From NCBI GenBank assembly GCA_043822685.1, contig JBDRBL010000003.1:4659-68658 (forward strand): DNA of 64,000 nucleotides, read 5' to 3'. Origin of the DNA: Candidatus Shapirobacteria bacterium. Its GTDB lineage: Bacteria; Patescibacteriota; Microgenomatia; PFEM01; JBDRBL01. The notes beneath the pieces were generated by a model that made no database searches, was not told the origin of the DNA, and saw nothing but the letters and a program-made list of their open reading frames with translations. Made by a program: the position numbers and the translations under genes. Below, piece by piece: positions 20,251 through 58,276 of the stretch (position 1 is its first letter; each line of letters begins with the position of its first letter).

Positions 20251-22155
20251 ATGAAAAAAAATAAGACGGATGCGACCGATTTTGCTTTGGCGATAAATCA
20301 TAAGCCCGTAAATGGCAACGGTTTTGCTTTTAAGTATGCCGGTAAACGGGGCAATATCGAGATTGATGAAGACGAAGTTGATACCATTGTTGTTGGGGAA
20401 GGAAGCAAGGACGACGCTAATAAAATTAATTCACCCGAGGCGACTAGTTTCACTCTGGCCGAGTACGTCAAAAAAGAATACGCTCTTAAACGTGTTTTTT
20501 CTCCAGATGTTGCGGAGGCTCATAAAAATGGCGATATCCATTTACAAAAATTAGGTTTTATTGATCGACCGTATTGTTCTGGTCAATCAGTGGAGTATGT
20601 TAAAAAATTTGGTTTGGAACGGCACTCGTCTTTTGCGGCGGTCAAACCAGCTGCGCACGCCGACGCTTTAATTGATCATTTACATCGTATGACCATGGCT
20701 TTGCGGGCGCAATTTGGTGGGGCCATTGGTTGGGATGCCGTCAATATGTATGTGGCCCCGTATTTGGTCGGCATGTCAGACGGAGAGATTTACCAAGTTG
20801 CTCAAAAACTGATCTACAGTTTTAATGAAACGACTGGTCCGCATGGGGCACAACCGGTTTTTTCGGATATCAATTTGTATTGGGAAATTCCTGCTCACTT
20901 TGCTGCTGTACCTGCCATTGGTCCGCGCGGCGAATTTACCGGGAAAGTTTATCAGGATTACGAAAAAGAAGCCCAAGCTCTAGTCTGGCAAATCTTTAAT
21001 GTTTATCATCACGGTGACGCTAATGGCGCGCCTTTTTTCTGGCCCAAACCCAACTTACATATTACTAAAAAATTTTGGCAAACACCGCAGCACGAGGCCT
21101 TTCTCGAACATGTTTGTAATGTAGCTGCAACCATGGGTAATCCCTATTTTATTATCGATCGCTCCGATGTGGCCAAAATTTCCGAGTGTTGTCGGATTTC
21201 TTTTGAACTTTCACCGGAAGATTTACAAGATGCTCTAAAACCATGGAAGATGCGCTATGCCGCTTGTCCGTATCTTTCGCCTAATTTACCGCGGTTGGCT
21301 TATCGAGCTAAGCACGATGATCAGAAATTTTTTCGCTATTTAGACGCAACTCTGGCCTTGCTTTTTAAAGCTCATTTGCAAAAACGAAGTTTTTTGAAAC
21401 GTATTTTTGATTTGGGAGAATTGGGCCCCTTATCGATGTTAGCTTATCGGGCGCCCGGCGATGACGAACCCTATTTGCGTTTTGATAAGATGGCCTATTT
21501 GATTGCCTTGGTGGGAGTTGATGACGCGGTGCGTTTTCATTTGGGCAAGGCGATTAACGAATCGGCTGAGGCGTTAAAATTAGCGCTCAAAATTGTCGCT
21601 CATATTCGGTTGCGGTGCCATGAATTTGGTCAAAAACATCATTTAAAAATGGTGGCTGACCAGGCACCATCAGAGTCAACGTGTTATCGTTTGGCTCGTT
21701 TAGATTTAGAATACTATCCAGATCAGGCAAAAAAGATTGTTCATGGCAATTTCAAGACGGGTGAAGTTTACTACACTAACTCTACTCAAGTGGCGGTTGA
21801 TGTGCCGATGGATCCTCTGGAAAGAATTGAATTGGAAGGTCGTTTCCACCCTCTGATGGAAGGGGGTTGCATGACGCATATTTGGATTGGCGAAAAAATG
21901 CCCTCGCCCGCTTCATTGGCTAATGTAGTGAAAAAAACTTTTTACGAAACGCAAAATGTTCAGATTGCTTTCTCGCCCGAGTTTACCGTGTGTTTTAATT
22001 GTGGCCAGACCTCGCGCGGTTTGCATAAGATGTGTTCTTATTGTCATAGTCGACGGGTAGACGGGATTACGCGCATTACTGGTTATTACTCTTTTATTAG
22101 TGCGTGGAATAAAGGCAAAAAGGGTGAATTGAGAGATCGTTATAAAGTCTTTTGA
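20251..22155 (+). CDS. nrdD: anaerobic ribonucleoside-triphosphate reductase (class III RNR) catalytic subunit
   Basis: AHKNGDIHLQKL motif; C-terminal CxxC...CxxC zinc ribbon (CFNCGQ...CSYCHS) and glycyl-radical RITGYYS. Confidence 0.8.
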   Translation: MKKNKTDATDFALAINHKPVNGNGFAFKYAGKRGNIEIDEDEVDTIVVGEGSKDDANKINSPEATSFTLAEYVKKEYALKRVFSPDVAEAHKNGDIHLQKLGFIDRPYCSGQSVEYVKKFGLERHSSFAAVKPAAHADALIDHLHRMTMALRAQFGGAIGWDAVNMYVAPYLVGMSDGEIYQVAQKLIYSFNETTGPHGAQPVFSDINLYWEIPAHFAAVPAIGPRGEFTGKVYQDYEKEAQALVWQIFNVYHHGDANGAPFFWPKPNLHITKKFWQTPQHEAFLEHVCNVAATMGNPYFIIDRSDVAKISECCRISFELSPEDLQDALKPWKMRYAACPYLSPNLPRLAYRAKHDDQKFFRYLDATLALLFKAHLQKRSFLKRIFDLGELGPLSMLAYRAPGDDEPYLRFDKMAYLIALVGVDDAVRFHLGKAINESAEALKLALKIVAHIRLRCHEFGQKHHLKMVADQAPSESTCYRLARLDLEYYPDQAKKIVHGNFKTGEVYYTNSTQVAVDVPMDPLERIELEGRFHPLMEGGCMTHIWIGEKMPSPASLANVVKKTFYETQNVQIAFSPEFTVCFNCGQTSRGLHKMCSYCHSRRVDGITRITGYYSFISAWNKGKKGELRDRYKVF

Positions 22156-22159
22156 AAAT

Positions 22160-24256
22160 ATGACCATTGACGAAGTTAGAAAAAGACGAGATGAGGTTTT
22201 TGAGCGGGCGTATAATGTCCGCCGGTCGGATGAAATCATAAAAAATTGGGACCGGCAGGCGATCATTAAGTCACTGAAGAAAGAATTGGGCGATAAAGAC
22301 GGCTTAACGGAAGAAATTGCCGAAGCGGTTGAGAAAAAGATCTTTAAGATGGATTTGTCGGTGATTACCGGACCATTAGTTCGCGAGACGGTCTGTATTG
22401 AATTATTGTTGCGGGGAATGGAGGAAGAGTATCGGAGATATCAGCGATTAGGGTTACCGATTTATGATGTCCGCAATATTATGATGACGCACAACGAGGC
22501 GGTTTCTTCTAATAATCCTCACACTCCGGAGACAACTAATATGACGATTGCCGGGTCGATCAAAAAAGATTACGCCATGGCGGAAATCTTTTCGCGTGAA
22601 GTCACCGAAGCTCATCTGAAAGGGGATCTTCATCTACACAAGTTGGATTTTCCTGACCGGCCATATTGTTGCGGCAATAGCTTGGAGTACGTTAAAAAAT
22701 ACGGCCTTAATTTGAGCTCGTCTTTGGCGATTGCTCGCCCAGCCAAACACGCCGGTGTTTTGATTTTGCATATGATTAAGTTTTCCTGTATGCTGCAAAT
22801 TCATTTTTCCGGAGCAATTGGCTGGGAAGCGGTTAATATTTTTTTGGCACCGTATTTAGTCGGTTTATCAGAAAAAGAGATTTATGATTTGGCGCAGTTG
22901 TTAGTCTATGAATTTAATACTCAAAACGTGGCCAAGGGCGGGCAGGCGGTTTTTTCCGATATTAATCTCTACTGGGAAGTGCCGGAACACTATCGCCAAA
23001 CGCCGGCGATTGGTCCTGGCGGCAAATATACCGGCAAGACTTATGCTGACTACGAAAAAGAAGCGCAGTTGTTTTTAACCCAATTAATGCAGGTTTATCT
23101 CAAAGGCGATGGCTCCGGCCGGCCTTTTTTTTGGCCTAAGCCCGATTTTCATATGACCGAGCGTTTTTGGCAAACACCGGGGCATAAAGAATTTTTAAAT
23201 TTGGCTTGTCAAGTGGCGAGTAAAATGGGCAATACCGAGTTTTTCTTTGACCGGGGCCAAGCCTCGCGGATTTCCCAATGCTGTCGCTTGTCGTTTAAAC
23301 TCGACAAAAAAGACTTGGAAGAAACCAAAAAACCAGAATTAATGCGCCATTCGGCTACCTCTTGGGTGACGCTTAATCTACCGCGAATCGCTTATGAAGC
23401 TAATCACAATGATGACAAATTATTTTTGTTGTTGAAAAAACGGATGAATTTGGCGGCCAAGGCTCATGTCCAAAAACGACGTTTTATACAAAAAATCCTG
23501 AACTTGAGGACTAATGGTCCCTTATCAGCGTTGTGTACCCGCCAAGTTGATGATCCCTATCCTTTTTACCGTTTTGACCGATCGGTCGAGTTGACCACGA
23601 TTTACGGCGTTAATGAGATGGTTCAATATCATTTGGGTCAACAATTGCATGAATCAGACGACGCGTTAAAGCTAGGGCTTAAAATTGTTTCGATGATGAA
23701 TTTGTACACCAAAGAGCAAAGCCAAAAGTTAAAGTTGCGAATTTGTACCGAGCAAACCCCGGCTGAAGGCACTTCATATCGCCTGGCGCGTTTGGATTTG
23801 CAATGGTTTTCGGACGAAGCAAAACAAGTGGTTAAGGGCAATCAAAAGACCGAAGCGGTTTACTATACCAATTCTTCGCAGTTAAATAATTCGGCGGCAG
23901 TTGATCCGATTGAAAGAATCAAAAAAGAGGGCTTGTTTCACCCTTTAATCGATGCCGGCGCGATGACTCACCTTTGGCTGGGAGAGCAGGAGCCACCGGC
24001 GAACTCTTTAGCTAATTTTATCAAAAAAATTTTTCAGGAAACCAAGTGTGAGTTGGTCGCTTTTTCACCGGAGTTTACTTTATGTTCTGATTGCCGCCAG
24101 ACTACCCGGGGATTAAAAGATGTTTGTTCTTATTGTAATTCAAGAAATATTGACCATATGACCCGTGTTTCCGGTTTCTACTCGCTTACCAGCCGGTGGA
24201 ATAAGGGCAAGATGCAAGAGTTAAAAGACAGATACCGGAACGATAATAAATTTTAA
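22160..24256 (+). CDS. nrdD: class III RNR catalytic subunit, second paralog, with an N-terminal ATP-cone-like extension
   Basis: about 55% identity to the upstream paralog over the core; CSDCRQ...CSYCNS and RVSGFYS; N-terminal roughly 100 aa resembles an ATP-cone. Confidence 0.8.
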   Translation: MTIDEVRKRRDEVFERAYNVRRSDEIIKNWDRQAIIKSLKKELGDKDGLTEEIAEAVEKKIFKMDLSVITGPLVRETVCIELLLRGMEEEYRRYQRLGLPIYDVRNIMMTHNEAVSSNNPHTPETTNMTIAGSIKKDYAMAEIFSREVTEAHLKGDLHLHKLDFPDRPYCCGNSLEYVKKYGLNLSSSLAIARPAKHAGVLILHMIKFSCMLQIHFSGAIGWEAVNIFLAPYLVGLSEKEIYDLAQLLVYEFNTQNVAKGGQAVFSDINLYWEVPEHYRQTPAIGPGGKYTGKTYADYEKEAQLFLTQLMQVYLKGDGSGRPFFWPKPDFHMTERFWQTPGHKEFLNLACQVASKMGNTEFFFDRGQASRISQCCRLSFKLDKKDLEETKKPELMRHSATSWVTLNLPRIAYEANHNDDKLFLLLKKRMNLAAKAHVQKRRFIQKILNLRTNGPLSALCTRQVDDPYPFYRFDRSVELTTIYGVNEMVQYHLGQQLHESDDALKLGLKIVSMMNLYTKEQSQKLKLRICTEQTPAEGTSYRLARLDLQWFSDEAKQVVKGNQKTEAVYYTNSSQLNNSAAVDPIERIKKEGLFHPLIDAGAMTHLWLGEQEPPANSLANFIKKIFQETKCELVAFSPEFTLCSDCRQTTRGLKDVCSYCNSRNIDHMTRVSGFYSLTSRWNKGKMQELKDRYRNDNKF

Positions 24257-24517
24257 ATGACACTCAAACTTTTTACTCAACCAAATTGTTCGAAGTGCCC
24301 AACTGCGCATGCGCTCGTGCACCAGTTAACAGTTAACAGTGAACAGTTAATAGTCGAAGAGTACAACGTCACTACTGCTGACGGCTTGGCGGAGGCAAGT
24401 TTTTACTCGGTGATGGCGACTCCCAGTTTGGTTTTACTGGATGATTCCGGTAAAGAAATCCACACCTGGCGCGCCGAAACACCGAGTTTGACAGAGATCA
24501 ATGCTTTACTACGATAA
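24257..24517 (+). CDS. small thioredoxin/glutaredoxin-fold protein with CxxC (NrdH-like candidate reductant); contains a heptamer-repeat insert
   Basis: TQPNCSKCP redox motif near the N-terminus; sits between nrdD and nrdG. Confidence 0.5.
   Translation: MTLKLFTQPNCSKCPTAHALVHQLTVNSEQLIVEEYNVTTADGLAEASFYSVMATPSLVLLDDSGKEIHTWRAETPSLTEINALLR
24323..24357. repeat. heptanucleotide tandem repeat (CAGTTAA)x5 embedded in-frame in the thioredoxin-like CDS
   Basis: cagttaa cagttaa cagtgaa cagttaa tagtcga read directly; encodes QLTVNSEQLIVE. Confidence 0.55.
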
Positions 24518-24532
24518 TACGTATCATTATAG
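24509..24532. repeat. degenerate copy of the dispersed palindromic element, immediately upstream of nrdG
   Basis: CTACGATAATACGTATCATTATAG compared with the consensus CTATGATGATACGnATCATCGTAG. Confidence 0.45.
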
Positions 24533-24538
24533 CAAGAG

Positions 24539-25231
24539 ATGAGAATTGCTGGGTATTTAAGAACTTCGCTCATTGAGTGGCCGGGGAAGATCAGCAGTGT
24601 CATTTTTACGCCCGGGTGTAATTTTGCCTGTCCCTTTTGTCATAACGCGGATCTAGTGAGGAACAAGGGAACGCAGGAAATTAGTGAACAGTCGGTTTTG
24701 GAAGATTTGAAGAAGCGGAAAAAATGGATCGATGGCGTGGTGATTACCGGTGGAGAGCCGACGCTTCAGCCGGATCTGCCTGAATTTATCGCCAAAGTAA
24801 AAAAATTGGGTTTTGAAATAATGCTGGAGACAAATGGCAGTTTACCCCAAAACCTTCAAAAAACGCTTCCACTTCTTGATTATTTATCGCTGGATTTTAA
24901 GACAAGATTTGAGGACTACTCCAAAGTGGTCAGAAATAAAAATTTTGATGTTAGAGATTGGCAAAAAAGTCTGCGCTTAATAATTGCGGCCCAAATCCCT
25001 TTTGAAATCCGTACGACAGTTGTACCAACAATTCACAATCAGCAAGTTTTAGTCGCCATGGCCCAAGAATTATCTAAACAACTAGCTTGTTCTACTTGGT
25101 TCTGGCAATCTTTTGTTCCCCAAAACTGTTTGGACAAATCTTTTCTCAAAATCAAACCCCATCCCGTGACCGAGTTAGAAACTCTTGCCCGCCAAGCGAA
25201 AAATTTTTACTCCGAAATTAAAATTAAATAA
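24539..25231 (+). CDS. nrdG: anaerobic RNR activating protein (radical SAM)
   Basis: CNFACPFCHN radical-SAM cysteine motif; position downstream of nrdD. Confidence 0.8.
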   Translation: MRIAGYLRTSLIEWPGKISSVIFTPGCNFACPFCHNADLVRNKGTQEISEQSVLEDLKKRKKWIDGVVITGGEPTLQPDLPEFIAKVKKLGFEIMLETNGSLPQNLQKTLPLLDYLSLDFKTRFEDYSKVVRNKNFDVRDWQKSLRLIIAAQIPFEIRTTVVPTIHNQQVLVAMAQELSKQLACSTWFWQSFVPQNCLDKSFLKIKPHPVTELETLARQAKNFYSEIKIK

Positions 25232-25257: not shown

Positions 25258-25605
25258 ATGGTGAGTGATGAGCGCAAGGATATTCCCAGTGTTGAACCAG
25301 AAACAGTTAAATATACCGAAGTTGAGACGACTCCGGAAATTGGTCCGGAGGTTAAGGATTGGTTGACCCAGCTGGAGCAAGGCGAGGAAATTAAACTGCC
25401 CCAGCCGGTGACCGATGATCAAGGTCAGATTTTGGTGAGCAATGTGGCTCCACAGCAAGTAACGATCACTTTACCTTTAACCGAAGCGGAGATGAGGCGC
25501 GCTCTGCATTTAAAACTAGTTTATGCCGCTCGTTGGTTGGGGGAGCAGATGAACCGGCTGTCGCAAATTATGGGAGGAAGGCTTGTTTATAAATTCAAAA
25601 GTTGA
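25258..25605 (+). CDS. hypothetical protein, acidic
   Basis: ORF track; stop/start overlap with the downstream ATPase gene. Confidence 0.35.
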   Translation: MVSDERKDIPSVEPETVKYTEVETTPEIGPEVKDWLTQLEQGEEIKLPQPVTDDQGQILVSNVAPQQVTITLPLTEAEMRRALHLKLVYAARWLGEQMNRLSQIMGGRLVYKFKS

Positions 25606-27944
25606 ATATGGAATTGATTGACAATTTTCTTAATCGTTTGCTTTCTTGGCTGGTGATTTTAGCGACGGTGGCGCTGGTTGCCGGGGCGTTGGCCTTGGTT
25701 TTTTACGCTTTTTTTGTCTGGTGGAAATATCGTCGTCGCGAAAAACAATCCCTAGAATATTTGATACTTCAAATTGCCGTACCTCATGATAATGAGATTA
25801 AAATTGATGCCGCCGAGCAGATGTTTGCTTCCCTGGCTTCCATAAAAAAAGGTGGCTGGTTTTCTTTTTTACGCCCCCAGCCGCACCTTGCTTTTGAAAT
25901 TTTGGCTAAACACGAGGATATTTGTTTTTATCTTTCGGTTCATCGCAAGATGCGCGATTTGGTGGAAAAACAAATTTATGGTGCCTATCCCGATGCCAAA
26001 TTGCTCGAAGTTGAGGAGCCCACGATTTTTACTCAAAACGGCAAAGTTGCTTTTGCCGAGATGCAGTTTCGCTCGAGTGCCTACCTTCCCCTCAAGGTTT
26101 ACAAAGATCTTCCTACTGACCCTCTTTCGGCGATTACCGCGGTGATGGCCAAGATGGGTGAGGAGGAGGGGGCGGTGATTCAAATTTTAATCTCTCCCGC
26201 CGACGGTAAGTGGAGAAACAAGGGCCATGCTTATGTTTCTCGTATCAAGAAGAACGAAAGTAATCCGGAGAAGGCTAAATTTGCTGTTGACCCCAAGGAT
26301 TTGGAGGCGATTGAGAATAAGTGTTCCAAGCCCGGTTTCAAAACTTACCTGCGTTTTGTTGTCTGCGCCCCCGATTTAGAGCAGGCTAATGCTCATTTAG
26401 GCAATCTTAAAAGCGCCTTTTCTCAATTTGATTCTCATCTTAACAGCTTCAAAAGCAAAAAAACATGGCTTAAGAAATCCTTTATGCTCGACTTTATTTA
26501 TCGCTATCAGCCGCGCTGGACATGGCGTACCAATAGCGCTATTTTAAATTCAGAGGAGTTGGCCACGGTTTTTCACTTGCCTAACAAACAAGTGGAAACG
26601 CCCCACCTGCGCTGGGTTTATTCCAAACGTTCCCCGGCACCGATTAATATTCCCACCGGCGGTTTATTGCTGGGTCGTAATGTTTTTCGCGGGGTTACCC
26701 GGCCGGTCTATCTCACCGACTCCGATCGCCGCCGGCACATCTATATTATTGGCCGTACCGGCGTCGGCAAAACAGAACTAATGCGCGATCTGATTTTGCA
26801 GGATATTCGTTCGGGTAAGGGAGTTTGCCTGATTGATCCTCATGATATTGCCGAGGATATTCTTAATTTTATCCCGCCGGAGAGAGCCGAAGACGTGATT
26901 TATTTTGATCCTTCCGACGAAGAGCGGCCGCTAGGTTTAAATTTACTCGAAGCGCACACTGAACAACAAAAGCACTTTGTGACCACCGGTATTATTAATT
27001 TAATGTATAAGCTTTTTGATCCTTATAAAACAGGAATTGTCGGGCCGCGCTTTGAACACGGAGTGAGAAACGCAATGTTGACGGTCATGTCCGAGCCGGG
27101 GGCTACTTTTATCGAGGTCGTTCGGATTATGACCGATTCCCGTCTGGTCCAGGAATACCTGCCTAAAGTTACCGACGCTATGGTGCGCCGCTATTGGACT
27201 GATCAAATTGCCCAAACCTCTGATTTTCACAAGTCCGAGGTTTTGGACTACACCGTTTCCAAGTTCGGTCGTTTCGTTACCAATAAAATGATGCGGAATA
27301 TCATTGGTCAATCAGAGTCTTCTTTTGATTTCCGCAAAGTTACGGATGAGGGAAAAATCTTGATTATTAATTTGGCTAAAGGTAAATTGGGGGAGGAAAA
27401 TTCTAATTTTTTGGGCCCGATTTTGGTGCCGAAGATTCTTATGGCGGCGATGTCGCGCCAAGACACTCCCGAGGAACAGCGGAAAGACTTTTATTTATAT
27501 GTGGATGAGTTTCAAAACTTTGCCACGCCTGATTTTGCCCAAATTTTGTCCGAGGCGCGCAAGTATCGGCTTAATTTGTGCGTTGCCAACCAATTTATTG
27601 GTCAAATGGAGGAGGAAGTTAAAAACGCGGTTTTTGGCAACGTTGGAACATTGATTTCTTTTAATATTGGGGTCACGGATGCCAACTTTTTGCAGCATTG
27701 GTTTGCACCTACCTTCGGGGAGGATGACCTGATTAACATCGAAAAATATAACGCCTATATCAAAACAATCGTTAAGAGCGAGCCTCAACCGCCTTTCTCG
27801 ATGGATTTATCTAAAGATATGGCGGAACTTAATCGCCAGCGCAATCCACGCGTTTCGGAGATGATCAAACAGCTTTCCCGGCTCAAGTATGGCCGCGCCA
27901 GAGAGGTTGTTGAGGCGCAAATTACCCAGCGGGCAAGATTATAG
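25602..27944 (+). CDS. membrane-anchored P-loop ATPase of the type IV secretion type (VirD4/TraD coupling-protein or VirB4-like; FtsK/HerA superfamily)
   Basis: N-terminal TM; Walker A IGRTGVGKT; Walker B-like YLYVDEFQNF; 780 aa. Confidence 0.5.
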   Translation: MNMELIDNFLNRLLSWLVILATVALVAGALALVFYAFFVWWKYRRREKQSLEYLILQIAVPHDNEIKIDAAEQMFASLASIKKGGWFSFLRPQPHLAFEILAKHEDICFYLSVHRKMRDLVEKQIYGAYPDAKLLEVEEPTIFTQNGKVAFAEMQFRSSAYLPLKVYKDLPTDPLSAITAVMAKMGEEEGAVIQILISPADGKWRNKGHAYVSRIKKNESNPEKAKFAVDPKDLEAIENKCSKPGFKTYLRFVVCAPDLEQANAHLGNLKSAFSQFDSHLNSFKSKKTWLKKSFMLDFIYRYQPRWTWRTNSAILNSEELATVFHLPNKQVETPHLRWVYSKRSPAPINIPTGGLLLGRNVFRGVTRPVYLTDSDRRRHIYIIGRTGVGKTELMRDLILQDIRSGKGVCLIDPHDIAEDILNFIPPERAEDVIYFDPSDEERPLGLNLLEAHTEQQKHFVTTGIINLMYKLFDPYKTGIVGPRFEHGVRNAMLTVMSEPGATFIEVVRIMTDSRLVQEYLPKVTDAMVRRYWTDQIAQTSDFHKSEVLDYTVSKFGRFVTNKMMRNIIGQSESSFDFRKVTDEGKILIINLAKGKLGEENSNFLGPILVPKILMAAMSRQDTPEEQRKDFYLYVDEFQNFATPDFAQILSEARKYRLNLCVANQFIGQMEEEVKNAVFGNVGTLISFNIGVTDANFLQHWFAPTFGEDDLINIEKYNAYIKTIVKSEPQPPFSMDLSKDMAELNRQRNPRVSEMIKQLSRLKYGRAREVVEAQITQRARL

Positions 27945-28971: not shown

Positions 28972-29044
28972 GGGGCGGTAGCTCAATGGTGGAGCGGCAT
29001 CCTTATAAGATGAAGGCTTGATGGTTCGAATCCATCCCGCCCCA
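28972..29044 (+). tRNA. tRNA with UAU anticodon (reads AUA; Ile)
   Basis: manual cloverleaf fold: 7-bp acceptor GGGGCGG/CCGCCCC, D-stem GCTC/GAGC, anticodon loop CUUAUAA, T-arm GATGG-TTCGAAT-CCATC, discriminator A; a G27-A43 mismatch and a 6-nt variable loop make the fold imperfect. Confidence 0.65.
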
Positions 29045-29056
29045 CAGAAATGGATT

Positions 29057-29135
29057 TTTCGGCGAGTCAGAGATGGCGCTCGCCGCGCCCGCTCCCGCCC
29101 CCCCCCACACGCAGCGCTACCTTCACGCTCGGCCT
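29057..29135. repeat. GC-rich element A with an internal hairpin; imperfect direct repeat of element B at 30075-30125
   Basis: shares GGCGAG-N4-5-AGATGGCGC, TCGCCGCGC and GCGCTACCTT blocks with element B; GC-rich in an otherwise AT-rich stretch. Confidence 0.4.
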
Positions 29136-29404
29136 TCAGTCTCGTAAAAAGTCGGCTCGGTCAGTCCTTTCTTAAAAAGAAATGATCTCAAAGAAAAACG
29201 CAAAAATTTTAAAGAACTAAATCGATAAACTTTAAAGGCGCAACCGGTGGAACCAACTAAGAATCGCTTCTTGTTGTCCGATTGCGCCATTGAAAAAGCG
29301 ATTCCCTAAAAGTTGGTTCCAAATATCAATATACCAAATTCCTAAGGATTTTGGTATACTCATTTCAATATAAGTACAAGTTTAGAAAGAGAGGAGGTGA
29401 AAAT

Positions 29405-29986
29405 ATGCAAGAAGCTAGCAATAAAGAGCCTGTCAACAGTAATTTAGGCGATATTTTACAAAGGTCGCGTGGCGAGACCGATGCTGCTTTGAATGCAAAG
29501 GAGGTAGCAGAACAAGCTGAGCGAGATAGACAATCGGCAATTGATCAAGCATTGAGAAATATGGTTAGCAATAAGGACTTATTAAAATTTCTCAAGGCAA
29601 GAGATAAAGCGGTTACCTTGGTAGAGGGTAAACAGAAAACAGTTAATGCAGGAAAACCACTTGTAGAAATTACTGGTAATGGAAGAATAATAATTTCCCA
29701 CAGGAATTGGAAGGACGGAAGTGTCAGGGCAACTGATAGTTATGGGCTTGTCGATGTCAACGACCCAAATAGTAGAGTAAACTCTGACCAAATGGAGTAT
29801 CTTAATAGATTTGTTGTGGATGGAAAAGCGTTTATATTAAAATCTACAAGCAGTGCAATTAGTCCTAAAGTAGGTGATTTCCTTGCAGCAACCTATTTAG
29901 GTAATGATGTTTTGGGAACAAATATAACTGCAGACCATATAAGCCGATCGCTGACAGCAGGGGTTACAGAGCTCGCTAATAAGTAA
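29405..29986 (+). CDS. hypothetical protein (193 aa), low-GC, apparently strongly expressed orphan
   Basis: start reassigned to the ATG at 29405 preceded by a very strong SD AGAGGAGGTGA and a TG-extended -10 TGGTATACT; no signal peptide; flanked by elements A and B. Confidence 0.5.
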   Translation: MQEASNKEPVNSNLGDILQRSRGETDAALNAKEVAEQAERDRQSAIDQALRNMVSNKDLLKFLKARDKAVTLVEGKQKTVNAGKPLVEITGNGRIIISHRNWKDGSVRATDSYGLVDVNDPNSRVNSDQMEYLNRFVVDGKAFILKSTSSAISPKVGDFLAATYLGNDVLGTNITADHISRSLTAGVTELANK

Positions 29987-30074
29987 GTGAAATTATTAAA
30001 ACTCGGCGGAGCCGAGCAAAAATCGCGCGCGAAACATAAGCGAGGCCGAAGGCCCCTCCAGAGGCGGGCAGGCG

Positions 30075-30125
30075 AGCGTGAAGATGGCGCGGCGAGTGGG
30101 CGGCGGCACTCGCCGCGCTACCTTT
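30075..30125. repeat. GC-rich element B with a perfect 10-bp hairpin (GCGCGGCGAG...CTCGCCGCGC); partner of element A
   Basis: direct sequence comparison with 29057-29135. Confidence 0.4.
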
Positions 30126-30166
30126 GAAACTCAGTTCGAATTTTTTCGTAAAGAGTCCACTCCGTT

Positions 30167-31036
30167 TTACAACTCTTCCAATTTGACGTTTTCTTTGACC
30201 TTGTTCTCCACCAGTTTTAAGTATTTTTCGGTGGTGGAAAGCCTTTTGTGGCCAACCAGTTGCTGCAAAGTTACCACTGGGGCTCCGGCCGCCAACTGGT
30301 GAGCAATAAAAGTGTGCCGCAAGTCATTAACCGTGGCATTTTTGACTTCTGCGATTCGGAAGTAGCGATCAATGGCGGCTCTGATATTGCGCACCAGCAA
30401 TTGTTTGCCGGTTTTGGTTACAAAGATACTCTGACACTTTGCCATCGACCGATGGTTTAAGTATTTTTCCAGCGCTTTTTTGACTGAATCGTTTAATGGG
30501 ACGAGCCTTTCTTGGTGTCCTTCAAACGGCCGAACTCTCAAGCGATTTTCTTGCACATCAGCCAATTCCAGCCTCGCCAGCTCACTGATTCGTAAACCTG
30601 TTTGCAGTAAAATTTCAATTACGGCGGCTATTCGGACATCTCCTCGTGCCGCATCTCGTAAGGCTCGATATTCCATTTTGGATAACACTCTGGGTGCTTT
30701 TGATTCATAGCGCGGATAGGCCACCGTCTGGGTTGGATTTTCGCGAATTACTCCTTGTTGGGTTAAAAATCGAAAAAAAGTTTTGATTGAATTTAACTTT
30801 CGAGAAATTGATTTGGCAATGTATTTCTTTTGCGTGAGATCTTTTTTAAACTCTTCGATTGTTGCCGCGGTTACCTGGTCGACCTTGTCGATTTCTTTAG
30901 CCGCCAGAAATTTATTCAACTGCTCAACATCTTTTCCGTATGCTAAAATAGTTGCTGAAGCGCGGCCCTGTTTTTTTAGTTCGCTAACAAAGTTATTTTG
31001 GGCAACTATTAATAATACTTTCTCGTTTTCGTTCAT
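30167..31036 (-). CDS. tyrosine site-specific recombinase (XerC/XerD / phage-integrase family)
   Basis: C-terminal catalytic LRHTFIAHQL...GHKRLSTTEKY (R..HxxR..Y) and an N-terminal SAM-like domain. Confidence 0.8.
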   Translation of the reverse strand: MNENEKVLLIVAQNNFVSELKKQGRASATILAYGKDVEQLNKFLAAKEIDKVDQVTAATIEEFKKDLTQKKYIAKSISRKLNSIKTFFRFLTQQGVIRENPTQTVAYPRYESKAPRVLSKMEYRALRDAARGDVRIAAVIEILLQTGLRISELARLELADVQENRLRVRPFEGHQERLVPLNDSVKKALEKYLNHRSMAKCQSIFVTKTGKQLLVRNIRAAIDRYFRIAEVKNATVNDLRHTFIAHQLAAGAPVVTLQQLVGHKRLSTTEKYLKLVENKVKENVKLEEL

Positions 31037-31095
31037 GAAGTTGCAAGCAGTTGGCCCATAATAACACCGAGAGGGTTGGCTGTCAATTGGAAAAA

Positions 31096-31434
31096 ATGAA
31101 GCGTTTGATCAAATATATTATTTTTTTTGGCGGTATTGTCGTAATTATTGGCTTGTCAAAAGATATTCTGCGCTTGCTTAAAGTGGGAGACGAAGTTAAA
31201 ATTGCCGAGCAAAAAGTTTTTGACTTAAAGCAAAAAAATCAGGAACTCAAAGCGCAACTGGACTACTACCAGTCTGATGAGTTTGTGGAAAAAGAAGCTC
31301 GCAATAAGCTCAACTTGGTTCGTCCGGGTGAAACGATTATTGTTTTACCTCTTGATTACGGCGGAAAAGCCTCTTCCTTTGAACATCCTGACCCGCCCAA
31401 TTATCTCAAATGGTGGCGATTGTTTTTTGAGTAG
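31096..31434 (+). CDS. septum formation initiator FtsB/DivIC family
   Basis: TM + coiled coil + EARNKLNLVRPGE motif; start taken at the internal ATG 31096 (MKRLIKY). Confidence 0.6.
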   Translation: MKRLIKYIIFFGGIVVIIGLSKDILRLLKVGDEVKIAEQKVFDLKQKNQELKAQLDYYQSDEFVEKEARNKLNLVRPGETIIVLPLDYGGKASSFEHPDPPNYLKWWRLFFE

Positions 31435-31505
31435 CAGGGGAGGGAATCGAACCCTCGACCTCGGCGTTATGAATGCCGCGCTCTTACCAACTGAGCTACC
31501 CTGCC
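31432..31505 (-). tRNA. tRNA-Met (CAU anticodon; elongator-type, could be Ile2/lysidine)
   Basis: manual cloverleaf on the minus strand: acceptor GGCAGGG with a G1-U72 wobble, anticodon loop UUCAUAA, T-loop TTCGATT. Confidence 0.7.
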
Positions 31506-31534
31506 AAATTAGTCGTTAGTCAGAATCAAGGCTG

Positions 31535-31563
31535 ATTATAGCAATAAAAAAATCCCGAAACAA
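31535..31563 (-). promoter_or_regulatory. promoter for tRNA-Met (minus strand)
   Basis: TATAAT about 29 nt upstream of the mature 5-prime end, TTGTTT -35 with a 17-nt spacer (read on the minus strand). Confidence 0.45.
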
Positions 31564-31579
31564 TTTCGAGGTGAATGTG

Positions 31580-31649
31580 TTGCGGGGCCGGGAGTCGCAC
31601 CCGGTCTGCGAGATTATGAGCCTCGCGTGCAACGGTACACTACCCCGCG
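31580..31649 (-). tRNA. tRNA with CAU anticodon, initiator-like (C1:A72 mismatch)
   Basis: manual cloverleaf: acceptor CGCGGGG/CCCCGCA with C1-A72 unpaired, anticodon loop CUCAUAA, unusual T-loop TGCGACT, 70 nt. Confidence 0.55.
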
Positions 31650-31674
31650 CGTCAGTCTTTAGTCAGACAAGGGG

Positions 31675-31703
31675 ATTATACCTTTTGACTGGGGATTTGA
31701 CAA
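31675..31703 (-). promoter_or_regulatory. consensus sigma70 promoter for the initiator-like tRNA
   Basis: TTGTCA -35, 17-nt spacer, TATAAT -10 about 25 nt upstream of the tRNA 5-prime end (minus strand). Confidence 0.55.
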
Positions 31704-31885
31704 GAGCAGGGGAAGGGAGTTAAAATAAAGCAATTGAAAATTGAGTAAAAGCTTTGAGAGAGCGGGTTGGAGCTCTTGAATAGCTGTTGGGAGGAAATGC
31801 CCGGCCGGAAGCGAAACCGTACAAATCTCGCTGCGTGTGTCGTAAGCCAACGGAGCACGAAGGAAATAAATGATTTTCTTTGCGT

Positions 31886-31907
31886 CCCCGTTGAGGGGAT
31901 TTTTTTG
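31886..31907 (+). terminator. rho-independent terminator (plus strand)
   Basis: TCCCC-gttga-GGGGA hairpin followed by TTTTTTT. Confidence 0.55.
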
Positions 31908-31910
31908 TGA

Positions 31911-31984
31911 GGGGGTGTGGTTAAGTGGTATAACACGGGTCTCCAAAACCTGTATCGGGAGTTCGATTCTCTCCACCCCCGCCA
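31911..31984 (+). tRNA. tRNA-Trp (CCA anticodon) with encoded 3-prime CCA
   Basis: manual cloverleaf: acceptor GGGGGTG/CACCCCC, anticodon loop CUCCAAA, T-loop TTCGATT, discriminator G then CCA. Confidence 0.85.
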
Positions 31985-35803: not shown

Positions 35804-36906
35804 AAATGAAAATTGCTTTGGTGCATGATTATCTCAAGGGTGAGGGCGGGGCGGAACAGGTGCTGTTGGCTTTGCACGAACTTTTTCCTCAAGCGCCGAT
35901 TTACACCCTGTTTGCCGATTTTAAAAGAGACGCTAATTTTGGGCAAAAATATGCGCGGGCGAAAATAGTCGAGAGCTGGTTTGCTTGTTTGCCTTTGCAC
36001 GCACGATTAATTTCGCCTCTGCGTTTTTTACTGCCGATGCTTTGGCGGAGCTTTAATTTTTCTTCTTATGACTTGGTGATTTCTTCGGCTTCCTGGGCGA
36101 TAACTAAAGGCTTTGCTCAAGGTAAAACCAAAGAAATCTGTTATTGCCACACGCCCCCACGGTCGCTGTATGGCTATGATACCTCGCGAGATTGGCGCAA
36201 AAATTGGTTAACCCGGACTTATGGCTTGATTGTCAACCATTTTTTGCGTTTGTATGATTTTGAGCAGGCGCAAAAAGTGACTCAATTTGTCGCTAATAGC
36301 CGCGAGGTACAAAAGAGAATTAAAAAATTTTATCGCCGCGAAAGCGTGATTATCTCTCCGCCAGTTGATGTTTTTAATATCAAGGGTAAAGTGCAAAACT
36401 ATTTCTTGACCGGCGGTCGATTGGAAAAACCGAAAAATTTTGACTTAATTATTAAAGCTTGCGACCGGTTGAAAGTAAATTTAAAAATTTACGGCGTTGG
36501 TCCGCAGGAAAAATATTTGCGGTCTTTGGCCGGACCAACTATTAAATTTGTGGGGGGAGTGAACGATCAGGAAAAAGCGCGACTGTATGCCGATTGCAGG
36601 GCTTACATTGTGGCGCAAAGAGACGAAGATTTTGGCATTACACCGGTGGAGGCGATGGCGGCGGGACGACCGGTGATTGCTTATCGGGGAGGGGGCTATC
36701 TGGAAACGGTGGTGGAGGGGGAGACGGGCGAGTTTTTCGACAAATTAACGGTTGAAAGTCTAGTGGAAACTCTTCGTCACTATGATGATACGAATCATCG
36801 TAGTATAAAACCGGAAGATTGCCGAGCACAGGCGGAAAAGTTTAGTAAAAAAAAGTTTAAAAAGGCGATCTTAGAATTGGTGGCTCACTATGCCCGAACT
36901 TCCTGA
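35800..36906 (+). CDS. glycosyltransferase family 4 (GT1/GT-B fold)
   Basis: C-terminal EDFGITPVEAMAAGRPVIA motif. Confidence 0.7.
   Translation: MKMKIALVHDYLKGEGGAEQVLLALHELFPQAPIYTLFADFKRDANFGQKYARAKIVESWFACLPLHARLISPLRFLLPMLWRSFNFSSYDLVISSASWAITKGFAQGKTKEICYCHTPPRSLYGYDTSRDWRKNWLTRTYGLIVNHFLRLYDFEQAQKVTQFVANSREVQKRIKKFYRRESVIISPPVDVFNIKGKVQNYFLTGGRLEKPKNFDLIIKACDRLKVNLKIYGVGPQEKYLRSLAGPTIKFVGGVNDQEKARLYADCRAYIVAQRDEDFGITPVEAMAAGRPVIAYRGGGYLETVVEGETGEFFDKLTVESLVETLRHYDDTNHRSIKPEDCRAQAEKFSKKKFKKAILELVAHYARTS
36780..36804. repeat. copy of the dispersed palindromic element inside the glycosyltransferase CDS (encodes HYDDTNHRS)
   Basis: CTATGATGATACGAATCATCGTAGT. Confidence 0.4.
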
Positions 36907-39198: not shown

Positions 39199-39204
39199 CC
39201 ACGA

Positions 39205-39239
39205 TTGACATTTGATATGATGATACGTATCATCATATC
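39205..39239 (+). promoter_or_regulatory. promoter (TTGACA, 17-nt spacer, TATCAT) overlapped by a perfect 26-bp palindrome GATATGATGATACGTATCATCATATC; candidate operator
   Basis: palindrome 39214-39239 verified by reverse complement; GGAGGG SD and the ATG at 39251 follow. Confidence 0.5.
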
Positions 39240-39250
39240 AAGGAGGGAAG

Positions 39251-39691
39251 ATGACACAGATTTCTAAGCGTCCATTAGATAAGAAAATTGAGAGCGAGTT
39301 GTTTCAACTTCTAGTTAAAGCCATTGCCGACTTAAGAAATTCCGAAGAGATCGAAGAATTTTTAGCTGATTTTTTGTCACCGGTGGAAAAAATTATGCTG
39401 GCCAAAAGATTGGGAATTGCCGTCTTGATGGGAAAAAATTATGACTATCGGCAGGTGAAAGAAGTTTTAAAAGTTACTCCGGGAACGATTGCGGCCGTAA
39501 ATTTGAAGTACAAATATGCCAATCGAGGCTATAAAAAAGTGGTCGAGAAGATTCTCAAACAAGAAAAAACAGGGGAGTTGTTCAATAGAATTGGCGATTT
39601 TTTGACCTCGGTTCCTCCCAAAGGTGGCGATTGGTCGGTTTGGCGCCGGCGCAAAGAACAGGCCAAAGTCGCCCGCCAAAAAATACTCTGA
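39251..39691 (+). CDS. TrpR-like YerC/YecD family DNA-binding protein
   Basis: ELFQLLVKAI...EEIEEFLADFLSPVEKIMLAKRLGIAVL...TPGTIAAVNLKYKYANRGY mirrors the YerC/YecD pattern. Confidence 0.6.
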   Translation: MTQISKRPLDKKIESELFQLLVKAIADLRNSEEIEEFLADFLSPVEKIMLAKRLGIAVLMGKNYDYRQVKEVLKVTPGTIAAVNLKYKYANRGYKKVVEKILKQEKTGELFNRIGDFLTSVPPKGGDWSVWRRRKEQAKVARQKIL

Positions 39692-39710
39692 TGATACGAA
39701 TCATCGTAGT
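39688..39710. repeat. copy of the palindromic element between the convergent yerC-like and flavodoxin genes
   Basis: CTGATGATACGAATCATCGTAGT overlapping both 3-prime ends. Confidence 0.45.
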
Positions 39711-40192
39711 AAGGTGAATTGACTTAAGGTTTTGATAAAACAACTAATTTTTTCTTCAAATTTTTCCTGCCAGACTTTGGGGGCGGTGAGAGCTAGGGTG
39801 GCGATTGGTTTTTGATCGATGATTTTGGCCATGTCGGTAAAAGTTTTGTCCACGCCCGAGCTATGATAAGTGACAAAAAAAGCCACTTTGTTAAATTTCT
39901 TTTTATTTTGAGTTAAAAAAGTTTTTATGGGTGAAGAGAGAGTAAAGGCCCAAATAGGGGTACCGATTATAACGAGGGAGTAGTTAGTCAGGACACGGTC
40001 TTTAGTCGAAAACTGAATTGGAACAAAAATTTTTAACATCGTGGAACGGCCGGCTTTGAGATAACCTACTGGTCCCAAGCCAATCGACGGGCAAAGAATT
40101 TCCAAAATATCCGCCTTTAATTTTTCTGCCAGTTTCAAAGCGATTTTTTTGGTGGTTCCTGTTCGAGAGTAAAAAGCGACTAAAATCCTCAC
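39701..40192 (-). CDS. flavodoxin-like protein
   Basis: MRILVAFYSRTGTTKKIA flavodoxin phosphate-binding loop. Confidence 0.65.
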   Translation of the reverse strand: MRILVAFYSRTGTTKKIALKLAEKLKADILEILCPSIGLGPVGYLKAGRSTMLKIFVPIQFSTKDRVLTNYSLVIIGTPIWAFTLSSPIKTFLTQNKKKFNKVAFFVTYHSSGVDKTFTDMAKIIDQKPIATLALTAPKVWQEKFEEKISCFIKTLSQFTLLR

Positions 40193-40245: not shown

Positions 40246-41325
40246 GTGTACGAACCGGAGTTTACGATTACCCAAGAGATTCTTAGCAATATTGGTCGGA
40301 TTGAGGCGGCTAAAGAGGTGATCGAAAATGCGCCCTTGGTGCCGATTTACGAGGCGCGTTTTGTTTCCGATGCCCTTAACCGAACCGTCCACCACAGCAC
40401 CCATTTGGAAGGCAACGATTTGACCCTGCAGGAGGCAAAAAAGATTATTGAGGGGGAAAACATTGTTGCCCGTACCCGCGATGTCCAAGAGGTAATTAAT
40501 TATCGCAATGTCCTTAAACACCTTGACGGTTTGGAAAAAGATCTGCGCGAAGGCTGGCAGTATGATCCCGACGTTCTGGGAAAGATTAACGAAATCGTTT
40601 GTGATCGTTTGATTGATCCCGGCCAATTAGGCGTTTTTCGCTCTGTCCAAGCGATCTTAAAAGATGATCAAAGCGGCGAAATCGTTTTTCGTCCGCCGCC
40701 GGCAGTGGAGGTCCCTTATCTTTTGGAAGACTTTTTTGCTTGGCTTAATTCTGTTGAGGGTAAAAAAATCCATCCGGTTCTGCGCGCCGGCATTGCTCAT
40801 TATTATCTCGTGGCGGTTCACCCTTTTGTCGAGGGCAACGGCCGCTCCGCTCGCACCTTTGCCACTCTTGTCCTGTTTGCTGAAAATTATGACATTAAAA
40901 AGTTTTTCTCTTTGGAAGAATATTTTGACAAAGACTCCGCTCAATATTATCAGGCCCTTTTTGATGTTGACACTTCCCATTCCGATTCCGATATTGGCAG
41001 TCGCGATCTAACTCCCTGGCTGGAATATTTTACCCAAGCGATGGCGATTGAACTGACTCGCATTAAAGAAAAAGTTAAACAACTTTCTTTGGATGTCAAG
41101 ATCAAGCGGCAGATTGGCCATCAGGTGCCTCTCAAGGAGCGGCAGATGAAAATTATGGAGTATCTGGAGGCCAATGGTTCAATGACGACCGCAGAGGCGC
41201 GGGTGGCGGTGCCGGGTTATTCTGATGATAGTTTAGTGCGCGATTTTAATTATCTTTTAAATAAGGGCTTGCTTCGAAAAGTGGGCAAAACTAAATCTGC
41301 CCGGTATTGTTTGAAAAAATCATGA
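40246..41325 (+). CDS. Fic family protein (AMPylator type) with a C-terminal winged-HTH region
   Basis: HPFVEGNGRSAR canonical Fic motif. Confidence 0.75.
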   Translation: MYEPEFTITQEILSNIGRIEAAKEVIENAPLVPIYEARFVSDALNRTVHHSTHLEGNDLTLQEAKKIIEGENIVARTRDVQEVINYRNVLKHLDGLEKDLREGWQYDPDVLGKINEIVCDRLIDPGQLGVFRSVQAILKDDQSGEIVFRPPPAVEVPYLLEDFFAWLNSVEGKKIHPVLRAGIAHYYLVAVHPFVEGNGRSARTFATLVLFAENYDIKKFFSLEEYFDKDSAQYYQALFDVDTSHSDSDIGSRDLTPWLEYFTQAMAIELTRIKEKVKQLSLDVKIKRQIGHQVPLKERQMKIMEYLEANGSMTTAEARVAVPGYSDDSLVRDFNYLLNKGLLRKVGKTKSARYCLKKS

Positions 41326-43044: not shown

Positions 43045-44604
43045 ATGATCAAAAATTTTTTTGTATTTTTGTTTTGTTTGTTTTTCAGTTCTTCATCTGT
43101 CTTTGCCTCGGAATTACCTAATAACAAATTTGGCATTCATTTGGCAGTGCCGAACAAGGACGATCTAATCGCCGCGGCTAAACTGGTTAATTCCAATGGC
43201 GGCGATTGGGGCTACGTAACTTTGGTAATTCAAGACAATGATTTGGATCAAAATAAGTGGCAGGGAATTTTTGATCACCTGCGTGAGCTGCATGTGATTC
43301 CCTTGATTCGCCTGGCGACTCATCCGGAAAACGAGGGTTGGGCAAGGCCAACGGTTGACCAAGCAGAAAAATGGGCCATTTTTCTGGATTCTTTAAATTG
43401 GGTGGTTAAAAACCGCTACGTGATTTTGTTTAATGAGCCCAATCATGCCACCGAGTGGGGTGGAGAGGTGGATCCGGCAAATTATCAGGCGGTAGCGCAA
43501 GCTTTTATTACGGCTTTAAAAAACAAAAACCCGGACTTTTTTGTCATGCTTGCTGCGTTTGACGCCGCCGCGCCTCATCAGCCGCCGCGCTATGAAAGTG
43601 AAGCCGTTTTTTTGCGTGCTATTAGAGATTTATTTCCCTTAATTGACGGTTGGGCGTCGCATAGTTATCAGGGAGAGGAGTACCTAAAATCACCTCCAAA
43701 TCTTCCTGTCTTTATCACCGAAACCGGGTTTCGGCACGCTGAAGGGATTGGCTACGACCGCAAGCTGCCGACTGCGGCCAAAACAGCCACTCTGACCGTT
43801 AACTTGTTGCAGAAATTGATTCGCGATCCGCATGTAACTGCGGTGACCCCCTTTCTTTTAAATTATCAAGCCGAGCCGTTTGATCATTTTTCCTGGCAAA
43901 AATTTAACTCGAGTGAGTTTTATCCACAATACGGGGCAATACAAGATTTAGCCAAAGTTGCCGGTGAACCACGGCAAGAGCAAAAACTAGTCGTGGAACC
44001 AACTTTATCTCATCGCTTGCTAGCGGATTCGACTTATCAAATTCCGATTAAAATTAAAAATGAAGGTCAGGCAATTTGGTCTAAAGATGAAGGTTATCAA
44101 GTGCAATTGCAATTTCCTGACCAGCCGGAGTGGGAGTATTTTTTTACCGATTTTACCAACTTAAAACCTTTTCAAAGCGAAACTTTGTGGCTACATCTTA
44201 AAACCGAAGGTCAAACTGATCCGGCGACTTTAAAAATCGCTGTTGCCAAAAATGGCGAAACCATCTCCAATTTGGTTGAGTGGCCGGTGGAAGTTTTGCC
44301 GCCGATTAATTTAGAGCTAAAAGTCCCGCGGCTATTCTCTCGTTTTACGGCACCAACTGGCTTTAAACTGGTAATCTATGATTCTCAGGAGCAAGTGGTT
44401 TATGTTAGAGAAAAATTAACGGCGGTTAACGGCCGAATTAGAGTTGAGGGAGTGAATAATTTGACGCTGGATCAGCCATATCGCTTGGTGATGGTCAAAG
44501 ACGGCTACTTGCCCCGCCAGACTTTTTTGACGCCTGACGCGGGTGACAACAGCGTTGTTTTTAAACTAATGCTTTTGGACCTGCAAGCTTTACTTTCACT
44601 ATGA
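43045..44604 (+). CDS. secreted glycoside hydrolase, clan GH-A (GH5-like TIM barrel) with an extra C-terminal domain
   Basis: signal peptide MIKNFFVFLFCLFFSSSSVFA; LFNEPNH (acid/base NEP) and FITETG (nucleophile) motifs. Confidence 0.5.
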   Translation: MIKNFFVFLFCLFFSSSSVFASELPNNKFGIHLAVPNKDDLIAAAKLVNSNGGDWGYVTLVIQDNDLDQNKWQGIFDHLRELHVIPLIRLATHPENEGWARPTVDQAEKWAIFLDSLNWVVKNRYVILFNEPNHATEWGGEVDPANYQAVAQAFITALKNKNPDFFVMLAAFDAAAPHQPPRYESEAVFLRAIRDLFPLIDGWASHSYQGEEYLKSPPNLPVFITETGFRHAEGIGYDRKLPTAAKTATLTVNLLQKLIRDPHVTAVTPFLLNYQAEPFDHFSWQKFNSSEFYPQYGAIQDLAKVAGEPRQEQKLVVEPTLSHRLLADSTYQIPIKIKNEGQAIWSKDEGYQVQLQFPDQPEWEYFFTDFTNLKPFQSETLWLHLKTEGQTDPATLKIAVAKNGETISNLVEWPVEVLPPINLELKVPRLFSRFTAPTGFKLVIYDSQEQVVYVREKLTAVNGRIRVEGVNNLTLDQPYRLVMVKDGYLPRQTFLTPDAGDNSVVFKLMLLDLQALLSL

Positions 44605-44625
44605 TGATACGTATTATCGTAGTGA
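44598..44625. repeat. copy of the palindromic element at the 3-prime end of the GH gene
   Basis: CACTATGATGATACGTATTATCGTAGTG. Confidence 0.45.
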
Positions 44626-57940: not shown

Positions 57941-57966
57941 TTCGAATTATTGAAGTATTTATTTTA

Positions 57967-57992
57967 CTATGATGATATGAATCATCGTAGTG
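57967..57992. repeat. copy of the palindromic element between convergent genes
   Basis: CTATGATGATATGAATCATCGTAGTG. Confidence 0.45.
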
Positions 57993-58242: not shown

Positions 58243-58276
58243 GCTTTTAGTTTACCAAAATGGTATGATTATTTCA

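Follow-up and report, generated by a model that had tools for sequence, protein, structure and literature searches.

The stretch analyzed here, 64,000 nucleotides of a Candidatus Shapirobacteria contig (the window; 44% G+C), carries at 39251-39691 on the + strand a gene for a 146-aa TrpR-family regulator (Pfam PF01371) that is flanked by two members of a dispersed palindrome family. The upstream member (site 3, a putative operator without strand assignment) occupies 39213-39240 as a 28-mer and 39212-39241, TTGATATGATGATAC|GTATCATCATATCAA, at its full length, ending 9 nt 5' of the ATG. It covers the spacer and -10 element of a promoter-like TTGACA-17-TATCAT on the + strand (39205-39233), the -10 hexamer lying within the right arm, and the region 39200-39260 reads cacgaTTGACAtt-TGATATGATGATACGTATCATCATATCA-aggagggaagATG. 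The initial annotation described this copy as a perfect 26-bp palindrome overlapping the promoter of the regulator. The overlap is borne out, with TTGACA(39205)-17-TATCAT(39233) scoring 11/12 and ranking among the best promoter matches of a 20-kb scan; the length is not, as the palindrome finder returns arms at 39212-39230 and 39223-39241 that are 100% complementary and so form a perfect 30-bp palindrome.

The downstream member (site 4, 39684-39711, TACTCTGATGATACGAATCATCGTAGTA) overlaps the TGA stop of the regulator gene and the stop of a convergent flavodoxin gene (39701-40192, - strand), beyond which lies a Fic gene (40246-41325). The flanking of the regulator gene by two copies (sites 3 and 4) was thus correctly recognized at the outset, and the same arrangement is seen in relatives. 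In the closest of these (L078-L081), the downstream palindrome is followed by the Fic orthologue after 25 nt (119 nt in L078), and alignment to these loci places ~550 nt with the flavodoxin gene, an insertion relative to L078-L081, between palindrome and Fic in the window. Ancestrally, site 4 is the site in front of Fic, and because the flavodoxin gene was inserted between the two, its convergent context is secondary. The earlier description of a 3' copy between convergent genes applies to the window, where the flavodoxin stop lies in a palindrome arm, and not to the closest relatives, where the copy is 5' of Fic.

A search of the whole window with TGATGATACGTATCATCA, allowing up to three mismatches, gives matches beginning at 24512, 36783, 39218, 39689, 44602, and 57970 and at no other position. 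All six previously listed copies of the 28-bp palindrome are present, against 0.01 expected from dinucleotide-preserving shuffles, and the palindrome family is confirmed. Aligned by their centers, the window copies have the common sequence ACTATGATGATAC|GWATCATCGTAGT, and in a Hamming scan against 28-mer consensus sequences, matches with at most eight mismatches are essentially absent from shuffled sequence. Five of the six copies lie outside coding sequences (CDSs) in DNA that is ~86% coding.

The regulator protein is identical to one in a Candidatus Shapirobacteria metagenome-assembled genome (MAG). It matches Pfam Trp_repressor (PF01371) over residues 18-100 with 47.4 bits, above the cut-off of 27, and its AlphaFold2 model, with a predicted local distance difference test (pLDDT) value of ~90 over residues 11-100, has the all-helical TrpR fold with a helix-turn-helix. 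The nearest solved structures by sequence, 3FRW, 3G1C, and 3KOR, also match the model, with template modeling (TM) scores of 0.8-0.86, compared with ~0.7 for Escherichia coli TrpR; PDB entry 1TRR is among the fold matches. The TrpR fold takes up residues 1 to ~105 and is followed by two extra C-terminal helices (105-119 and 128-145) of lower model confidence, and neither Pfam nor the model gives a catalytic domain in this 146-aa helix-turn-helix protein. Scores against the TIGRFAM equivalogs fall short: 34.6 bits against a cut-off of 42.2 for TIGR02531 (YerC/YecD) and 17 against 67 for TIGR01321. The homologues in L042, L076, and L146 are likewise below the TIGR02531 cut-off, and only that of MAG KR13 passes (55.5 bits). 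Of the label "TrpR/YerC-like," the TrpR family part stands on profile score and fold, whereas equivalence to YerC/YecD does not; the regulator is a member of the TrpR family in a distinct "YerC-like" subfamily of the Candidate Phyla Radiation (CPR, or Patescibacteria) and not a HisR/YerC equivalog.

The strength of the association between gene and palindrome is best seen in homologous loci. A metagenome scan with protein alignment returned 271 relatives, from which 80 loci were kept and 64 distinct proteins counted; homologues at 43-66% identity are all of Patescibacteria (Microgenomates-type) origin. When a palindrome is defined as 12+4+12 with at most three mismatched pairs, 53 of 61 loci have one upstream, ending -1 to 18 nt before the ATG, 51 of 62 have one downstream, starting mostly -8 to 8 nt and at most 19 nt from the stop, and 41 of 59 have both. 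By comparison, the pass rate for random 92-nt windows drawn from these contigs is 6.6%, and several loci under the threshold still hold visible family members with 4-5 mismatches. Absence of the motif from orthologous promoters had been named as the finding that would speak against the proposal; because the motif is present at the orthologous promoters of relatives, the operator reading survives. Each homologue in L001-L006 has a palindrome directly after an upstream TTGACA and a second copy just past the stop, the palindrome following TTGACA by 2-3 nt in L001, L004, L006, L075, L076, and L083. The arrangement recurs in Curtissbacteria (L042 and L026), in Levybacteria and other lineages (L075-L077), and around the 33%-identical homologue of MAG KR13 (L012 upstream, L060 downstream). 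In all, apart from the 64 distinct metagenomic homologues, 10 loci from at least seven lineages have palindromes directly up- and downstream of the homologous gene. Downstream neighbors vary, comprising Fic, RecA (8/37), RluA-like, TatD-like, or SufT-like genes as well as convergent genes (at least eight loci), and those upstream include RecF (the window, L001, L004, and L006) and RecR (6/42, plus L075-L077). Because the neighbors differ across lineages, the palindrome bracket belongs to the regulator gene and to no particular neighbor. A gene bracketed by its own sites is a cassette conserved across many uncultured Patescibacteria; searches of the accessible literature found work on HisR/YerC and no description of this CPR subfamily, its cassette, or its palindromes.

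The two copies at one locus are closely alike, and variation is found between lineages. The family-wide half-site is YACTNYAATGATWY, with the highest information in T4 and AATGAT, and lineage variants have cores of ATGAT, ATGTT, ATGTA, or ATAGT and outer parts of CACT, TGCT, or TGTA, several of them starting with CACTTTA or TGTAC. Lineage-specific cores include ...TATGATGATACGTATCAT... in L004, ...TATAATAATATATATTATCA... in L006, and ...TTTATTGATATATATCATTAAA... in L001, and a second symmetric variant, CAGTATGGTAAT...ATTACCATACTG, is carried by KR13 and KR11. The recognition helix, at about residues 76-90 of the window protein, changes along with the motif: the ATGAT core is paired with ...TP.TIA.VS... 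or ...SAPTITSVN..., CATGTT with VGLETV(S/N)KV, ATGTA with VSLSTINRV or VSTTTIVST, AATAGT with SRPTIMNV, and TGCTTT outer parts with SAPTITSVN.ARKYG. Such joint change of motif and recognition helix is the pattern that would be expected of a regulator and its operator.

We consider it probable that the TrpR-family protein encoded at 39251-39691 binds the 28-bp palindromes and that its gene sits in a conserved cassette with two operators. The original suggestion, that the TrpR/YerC-like regulator has its operator in this palindrome, gains support from the orthologous loci and from a motif variant that tracks the protein lineage. Judging from the position and conservation of the palindrome, the protein would bind over the -10 element and spacer of its own promoter as a dimer, or possibly as two dimers given the 28-bp length, and binding over TTGACA-17-TATCAT would be expected to repress transcription of the regulator itself. 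What the sequences show is a conserved cassette, co-variation, the fold, and the overlap with the promoter, while binding itself, repression, stoichiometry, effector, and regulation at the dispersed copies are inferred. The copy at the regulator stop would be the second operator of the same cassette; it may act on the promoter of the following gene (in the closest relatives, Fic), function as an insulator or roadblock, or combine the two. The spacing of the two flanking copies, 471-521 bp, has no period of 10-11.5 bp, and their helical phasing is uninformative as a test of looping. The other four window copies, in short intergenic junctions and one CDS, would be extra sites of the same protein, and it is conceivable that dispersed copies couple lineage-variable genes to one signal, here fpg-recF, the nrdG junction, and a small open reading frame (ORF) with a P-type ATPase.

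Placing the regulator beside known systems gives additional insight. HisR, the YerC protein of Bacillus subtilis, is a TrpR-family histidine repressor of fewer than 100 aa that consists of the TrpR domain only, and HisR/YerC operators are 20-bp palindromes, cacTTTAnnnnnnTAAAgtg, with the half-site cacTTTA and are often autoregulatory (PMC9413887). Family, fold, and closest solved structures (3FRW, 3G1C, and 3KOR) are shared with the window protein, as are lineage-varying palindromic operators and frequent autoregulation, and the cacTTTA...TAAAgtg half-site is found again outermost in several CPR variants, such as CACTTTAATAATATATATTATTAAAGT. The differences are equally clear: the window operator measures 28 bp rather than 20 and has a conserved inner core, ATGAT-N4-ATCAT; the protein, at 146 aa, is ~45 aa longer, has the two extra C-terminal helices, and lies below the TIGR02531 cut-off; window sites adjoin nrdG, GT4/fpg, Fic, and P-type ATPase genes rather than his genes; and the CPR gene is bracketed on both sides, with recF, recR, and recA as recurrent neighbors. 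E. coli TrpR, with its trpR, trp, and aroH operators, resembles the regulator in fold (TM ~0.7) and in having an operator that overlaps the promoter of the repressor itself, and one CPR variant begins with TGTAC as the trp operator does, whereas sequence identity is ~20%, the TIGR01321 score is 17 against 67 bits, CPR sites lack trp genes, and the CPR gene has a second site at its 3' end. TrpR dimers can also occupy DNA in tandem with an 8-bp offset, which would fit a 28-bp site. The regulator may work like an autoregulated TrpR/HisR repressor, and it forms a separate CPR subfamily.

The palindromes could also be structural. Stable hairpins of -9 to -17 kcal/mol are possible, stop codons lie within palindrome arms in three cases in the window (those of the regulator, 39689-91, the convergent flavodoxin, 39701-03, and ORF 43045-44604), several copies (window sites 4 and 6; L050, L067, and L069) mark the end of a gene or are located between convergent genes, and copies in the CAYPQL and CAZKGJ MAGs have A-run/T-run flanks. 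All of this could be accommodated by hairpins like those of repetitive extragenic palindromic (REP) elements, in RNA or as DNA cruciforms, that serve as terminators, mRNA 3' stabilizers, or punctuation and whose association with the TrpR-like gene is incidental. If the hairpin acted in RNA, the asymmetry of G.U against A.C pairs should favor the sense strand; among 52 sites of unambiguous context, hairpin energy favors sense in 17 and antisense in 17, with 18 ties, which gives an RNA-level function no support, and within the window it favors the + strand at sites 2, 5, and 6. Window copies have A+T-rich stems and no U-tracts, only site 6 having a short T-run; a terminator scan gave matches not above chance and none on any copy; and no Rfam family matches any palindrome copy. 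The regulator gene of KR13 (contig L012) ends with an ordinary GC-stem and T-run terminator. Hairpins would also leave unexplained why one gene is bracketed in >80% of homologous loci and why one copy lies over a -10 element, and they sit poorly with the low density of extra copies, ~1 per 74 kb, that most lineages have. Because the cassette is conserved and copies are rare, mostly intergenic, and without sense-strand bias, the REP or terminator function that the initial annotation offered as an alternative is not supported as a general explanation, and we regard it as decidedly improbable.

For the remaining window copies, a link between site and neighboring genes is less direct. Site 1 (24507-24534, TACTACGATAATACGTATCATTATAGCA), the most degenerate copy, lies in a 21-nt junction between an unannotated NrdH-like redoxin ORF (24257-24517), whose stop it overlaps, and nrdG; as a 28-mer it ends 4 nt before the nrdG ATG, not the 7 nt first given. 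The surrounding cluster (20251-25231) consists of tandem nrdD genes (634 and 698 aa), the 86-aa NrdH/glutaredoxin-like ORF with a CxxC motif, and nrdG, and the same gene order (two nrdD, NrdH-like ORF, nrdG) is found in L160. Site 2 (36778-36805, CACTATGATGATACGAATCATCGTAGTA) is, as noted earlier, inside a glycosyltransferase CDS; it is in frame in the GT4 gene and encodes HYDDTNHRS, with fpg/mutM 84 nt downstream and then recF and a PNPOx gene. The same codons in L006 encode HYNNIYYHS in a protein 54% identical, each copy having the motif variant of its own genome, and the GT/fpg site is thus conserved in a distant relative. Site 5 (44597-44624, CACTATGATGATACGTATTATCGTAGTG) contains TTTACT-17-TATTAT and extends over the stop codon of a 519-aa ORF. 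Downstream of it come a 28-codon ORF, after 9 nt, and the P-type ATPase gene. Site 6 (57965-57992, TACTATGATGATATGAATCATCGTAGTG) falls within a gap of 500 nt and probably has convergent small ORFs on its two sides (57725-57940, + strand, and 57982-58242, - strand).

Across all loci, genes next to sites include several of DNA repair or nucleotide metabolism (recA, fpg, an HhH-GPD glycosylase, two NUDIX genes, a YfbR-like 5'-deoxynucleotidase, nrdG, and a 2-thiouracil desulfurase), along with the regulator itself, RuBisCO form III, MgtE, the P-type ATPase, and many unrelated genes; no his gene adjoins any site. Site-adjacent genes lean toward DNA repair and nucleotide metabolism, and no conserved regulon is demonstrable. 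With regard to position, 12 of 65 sites are genic at 86% coding, some of the 12 being start-codon miscalls, which makes the family markedly intergenic.

Several observations weigh against the palindromes being operators. The nrdG-junction site is absent in the four nearest nrdG relatives (NrdG identity 71, 69, 59, and 51%), and sites 2, 4, and 6 are without a + strand -10 element. Dispersed copies show no promoter preference, with five in convergent and three in divergent spacers (28 spacers each), and in tandem spacers the closer gene boundary is the upstream stop for 19 sites and the downstream start for 11; because neither the spacer counts nor these distances discriminate, promoter function of dispersed copies is not shown by position. 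The downstream cassette copy is kept despite a convergent next gene in at least eight loci, and in two "Saccharibacteria"-labelled MAGs copies are flanked by A-runs/T-runs in a terminator-like manner. Co-variation of motif with protein is confounded by phylogeny. Finally, window sites 2, 4, and 6 have an asymmetric "haplotype" in common with Curtissbacteria sites, and >20 copies in other MAGs have the same asymmetric ATGA center, a pattern that resembles copying, not convergence toward a symmetric dimer site.

The proximity of one copy to nrd genes and of another to the gene of an ATP-cone protein brings to mind a different binding protein, for example Fur-like or NrdR-like, of whose regulon the TrpR-like gene would merely be a conserved member. 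The A-type half-site TGATAAT is also the Bacillus Fur-box half-site, and lineage co-variation would be expected with any trans-acting factor. Such an explanation strikes us as very improbable. The spacing is 7-4-7, not 7-1-7, and on this ground, together with the gene-bracketing pattern, the Fur-box resemblance was rejected. NrdR boxes are tandem 16-bp palindromes (acaCwAtATaTwGtgt) upstream of nrd operons, whereas the nrdH-like/nrdG junction has one 28-bp palindrome, which is not conserved; given its absence from the four relatives, the idea of an nrd regulon or of NrdR was rejected. The outer half-sites resemble HisR and TrpR operators, and both-end bracketing in nearly all lineages, whatever the neighbors, is a signature of autoregulation. 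The regulon proposed for the regulator finds partial backing, the GT/fpg site being conserved in L006 and the nrdG site not being conserved.

How abundant the sites are bears on whether they spread by copying. Across 25 independent loci totaling 295 kb, each with its own locus palindrome, four copies were found beyond the two flanking ones (~1 per 74 kb; none in shuffles), one of them behind TTGACA in front of the gene preceding the regulator. L001, L004, and L075-L077 (13-20 kb each) contain no extra copies, and the window has four in its 64 kb. Among species-representative genomes, a pattern scan found at least 11 strict matches on 10 contigs of MAG KR13; KR11 and the two "Saccharibacteria"-labelled MAGs are also multi-copy, with a nearly invariant CACTATGATAATATGAATTATCATAGTG. 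Expansion is thus specific to certain lineages.

It could be speculated from these expansions that the palindrome is a copy-paste element paired with a protein that binds it, much as in REPIN-RAYT systems. The cassette would be the source, most dispersed copies would be nonregulatory passengers, and copies would spread or be homogenized through recombination or gene conversion. A single-copy gene placed between two copies of a palindrome that is scattered through intergenic DNA as well would fit, as would identical asymmetric-center 28-mers in many copies in several MAGs, an asymmetric haplotype common to different classes, in-frame palindromes in CDSs (one in GT4 and three, spaced at 63 nt, in a DegT-like gene), the expansion in KR13 and KR11, and the cassettes of variable genes that copies delimit in L036 and L038. 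Near-identical copies in some lineages are a further likeness. In number, REP/REPIN systems have tens to hundreds of extragenic copies per genome; the counts here are four extra copies in 295 kb across 25 lineages, four in the window, and at least 11 strict matches in one MAG. The flanked gene here, however, encodes a 146-aa TrpR-family helix-turn-helix protein without a catalytic domain, not an HUH/Y1 (IS200/IS605-like) transposase; palindromes are single rather than REP doublets, and extra copies are few in most lineages; and one flanking copy is a probable promoter-overlapping operator. Repeats stop at 28-30 bp, two local duplications excepted, and orthologous positions retain their copies, with stronger conservation than in the flanking sequence, sites at orthologous positions in KR13 and KR11 being 100% conserved where the DNA is 75-89% identical. 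As a full explanation we find copy-paste spread rather unlikely, somewhat less so than structural hairpins; haplotype sharing and lineage expansions keep a copy-paste component as a secondary hypothesis alongside operator function, and such expansion, if true, would spread a transcription-factor site through a genome.

A broader role can be suggested only tentatively. It is possible, and on balance we doubt it, that this apparently widespread CPR cassette, a TrpR-family gene bracketed by its own 28-bp operators beside recF/recR/recA, constitutes a regulator of DNA repair or replication stress whose operator multiplied in REP-like fashion in some lineages; the recurring recF/recR/recA adjacency hints at a role in genome maintenance. 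Patescibacteria have few regulators and are hard to culture, and their transcriptional regulation is almost uncharted, while the >80 loci here allow a regulator, its likely operator, and the conserved layout of the cassette to be read from sequence. Regulator and palindrome form a testable protein-DNA pair, the lineage-specific motif variants suit the study of how TrpR-family specificity evolves, and the lineage expansions bear on the spread of binding sites. The cassette may also provide a handle on genes that are co-regulated in CPR cells.

The multi-copy MAGs present features of their own. In KR13, three palindromes with centers exactly 63 nt apart (L033, 2476-2631) lie in frame in a DegT-like aminotransferase gene, encoding HYDNMNYHS, YYHTLEYDS, and HFGNWDNQS, of which the first is conserved in the KR11 (L027) and CAZKGJ (L032) orthologues; they resemble the in-frame palindromic elements of Rickettsia. 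Regions in KR11 (L036, 796-4936) and KR13 (L038, 2387-5643) consist of co-directional accessory-type genes (hydrolase, HATPase, HhH-GPD, LD-carboxypeptidase, APH, and 2-thiouracil desulfurase) with a palindrome between each, and gene content between conserved flanks differs between these related genomes. A second variant in these regions, CAGTATGGTAATATGTATTACCATACTG, often precedes an extended -10 element (TGnTATAAT). Integron attC-like cassettes were considered for these variable genes bounded by copies and rejected, as there is no R'/R'' core and no integrase nearby. KR13 also has other perfect 38-40-nt palindromes unrelated to the family (L012, 4139-4178, and L041, 4908-4945) and internal duplications of 250-300 nt, one of them repeating the 5' part of the RuBisCO gene in L049.

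Elsewhere in the window, the nrd genes are followed by a gene for a 780-aa TraG/VirD4-like coupling protein (25602-27944; TrwB_AAD_bind and TraG-D_C domains). In syntenic L160 this gene occurs close to a tyrosine integrase, and the region may be the remnant of an integrated conjugative element. A cluster of four tRNA genes lies at 28972-31981, no other Rfam family being detected in the window. The gene at 58241-58951 encodes a protein with ATP-cone and Mrr-type restriction endonuclease domains; its called start overlaps that of an 86-aa ORF on the opposite strand, and therefore one of the two starts is probably wrong. On the Levybacteria contig, a bAvd-like gene adjoins a reverse transcriptase gene (L076, 19385-20444), and the pair is probably a diversity-generating retroelement.

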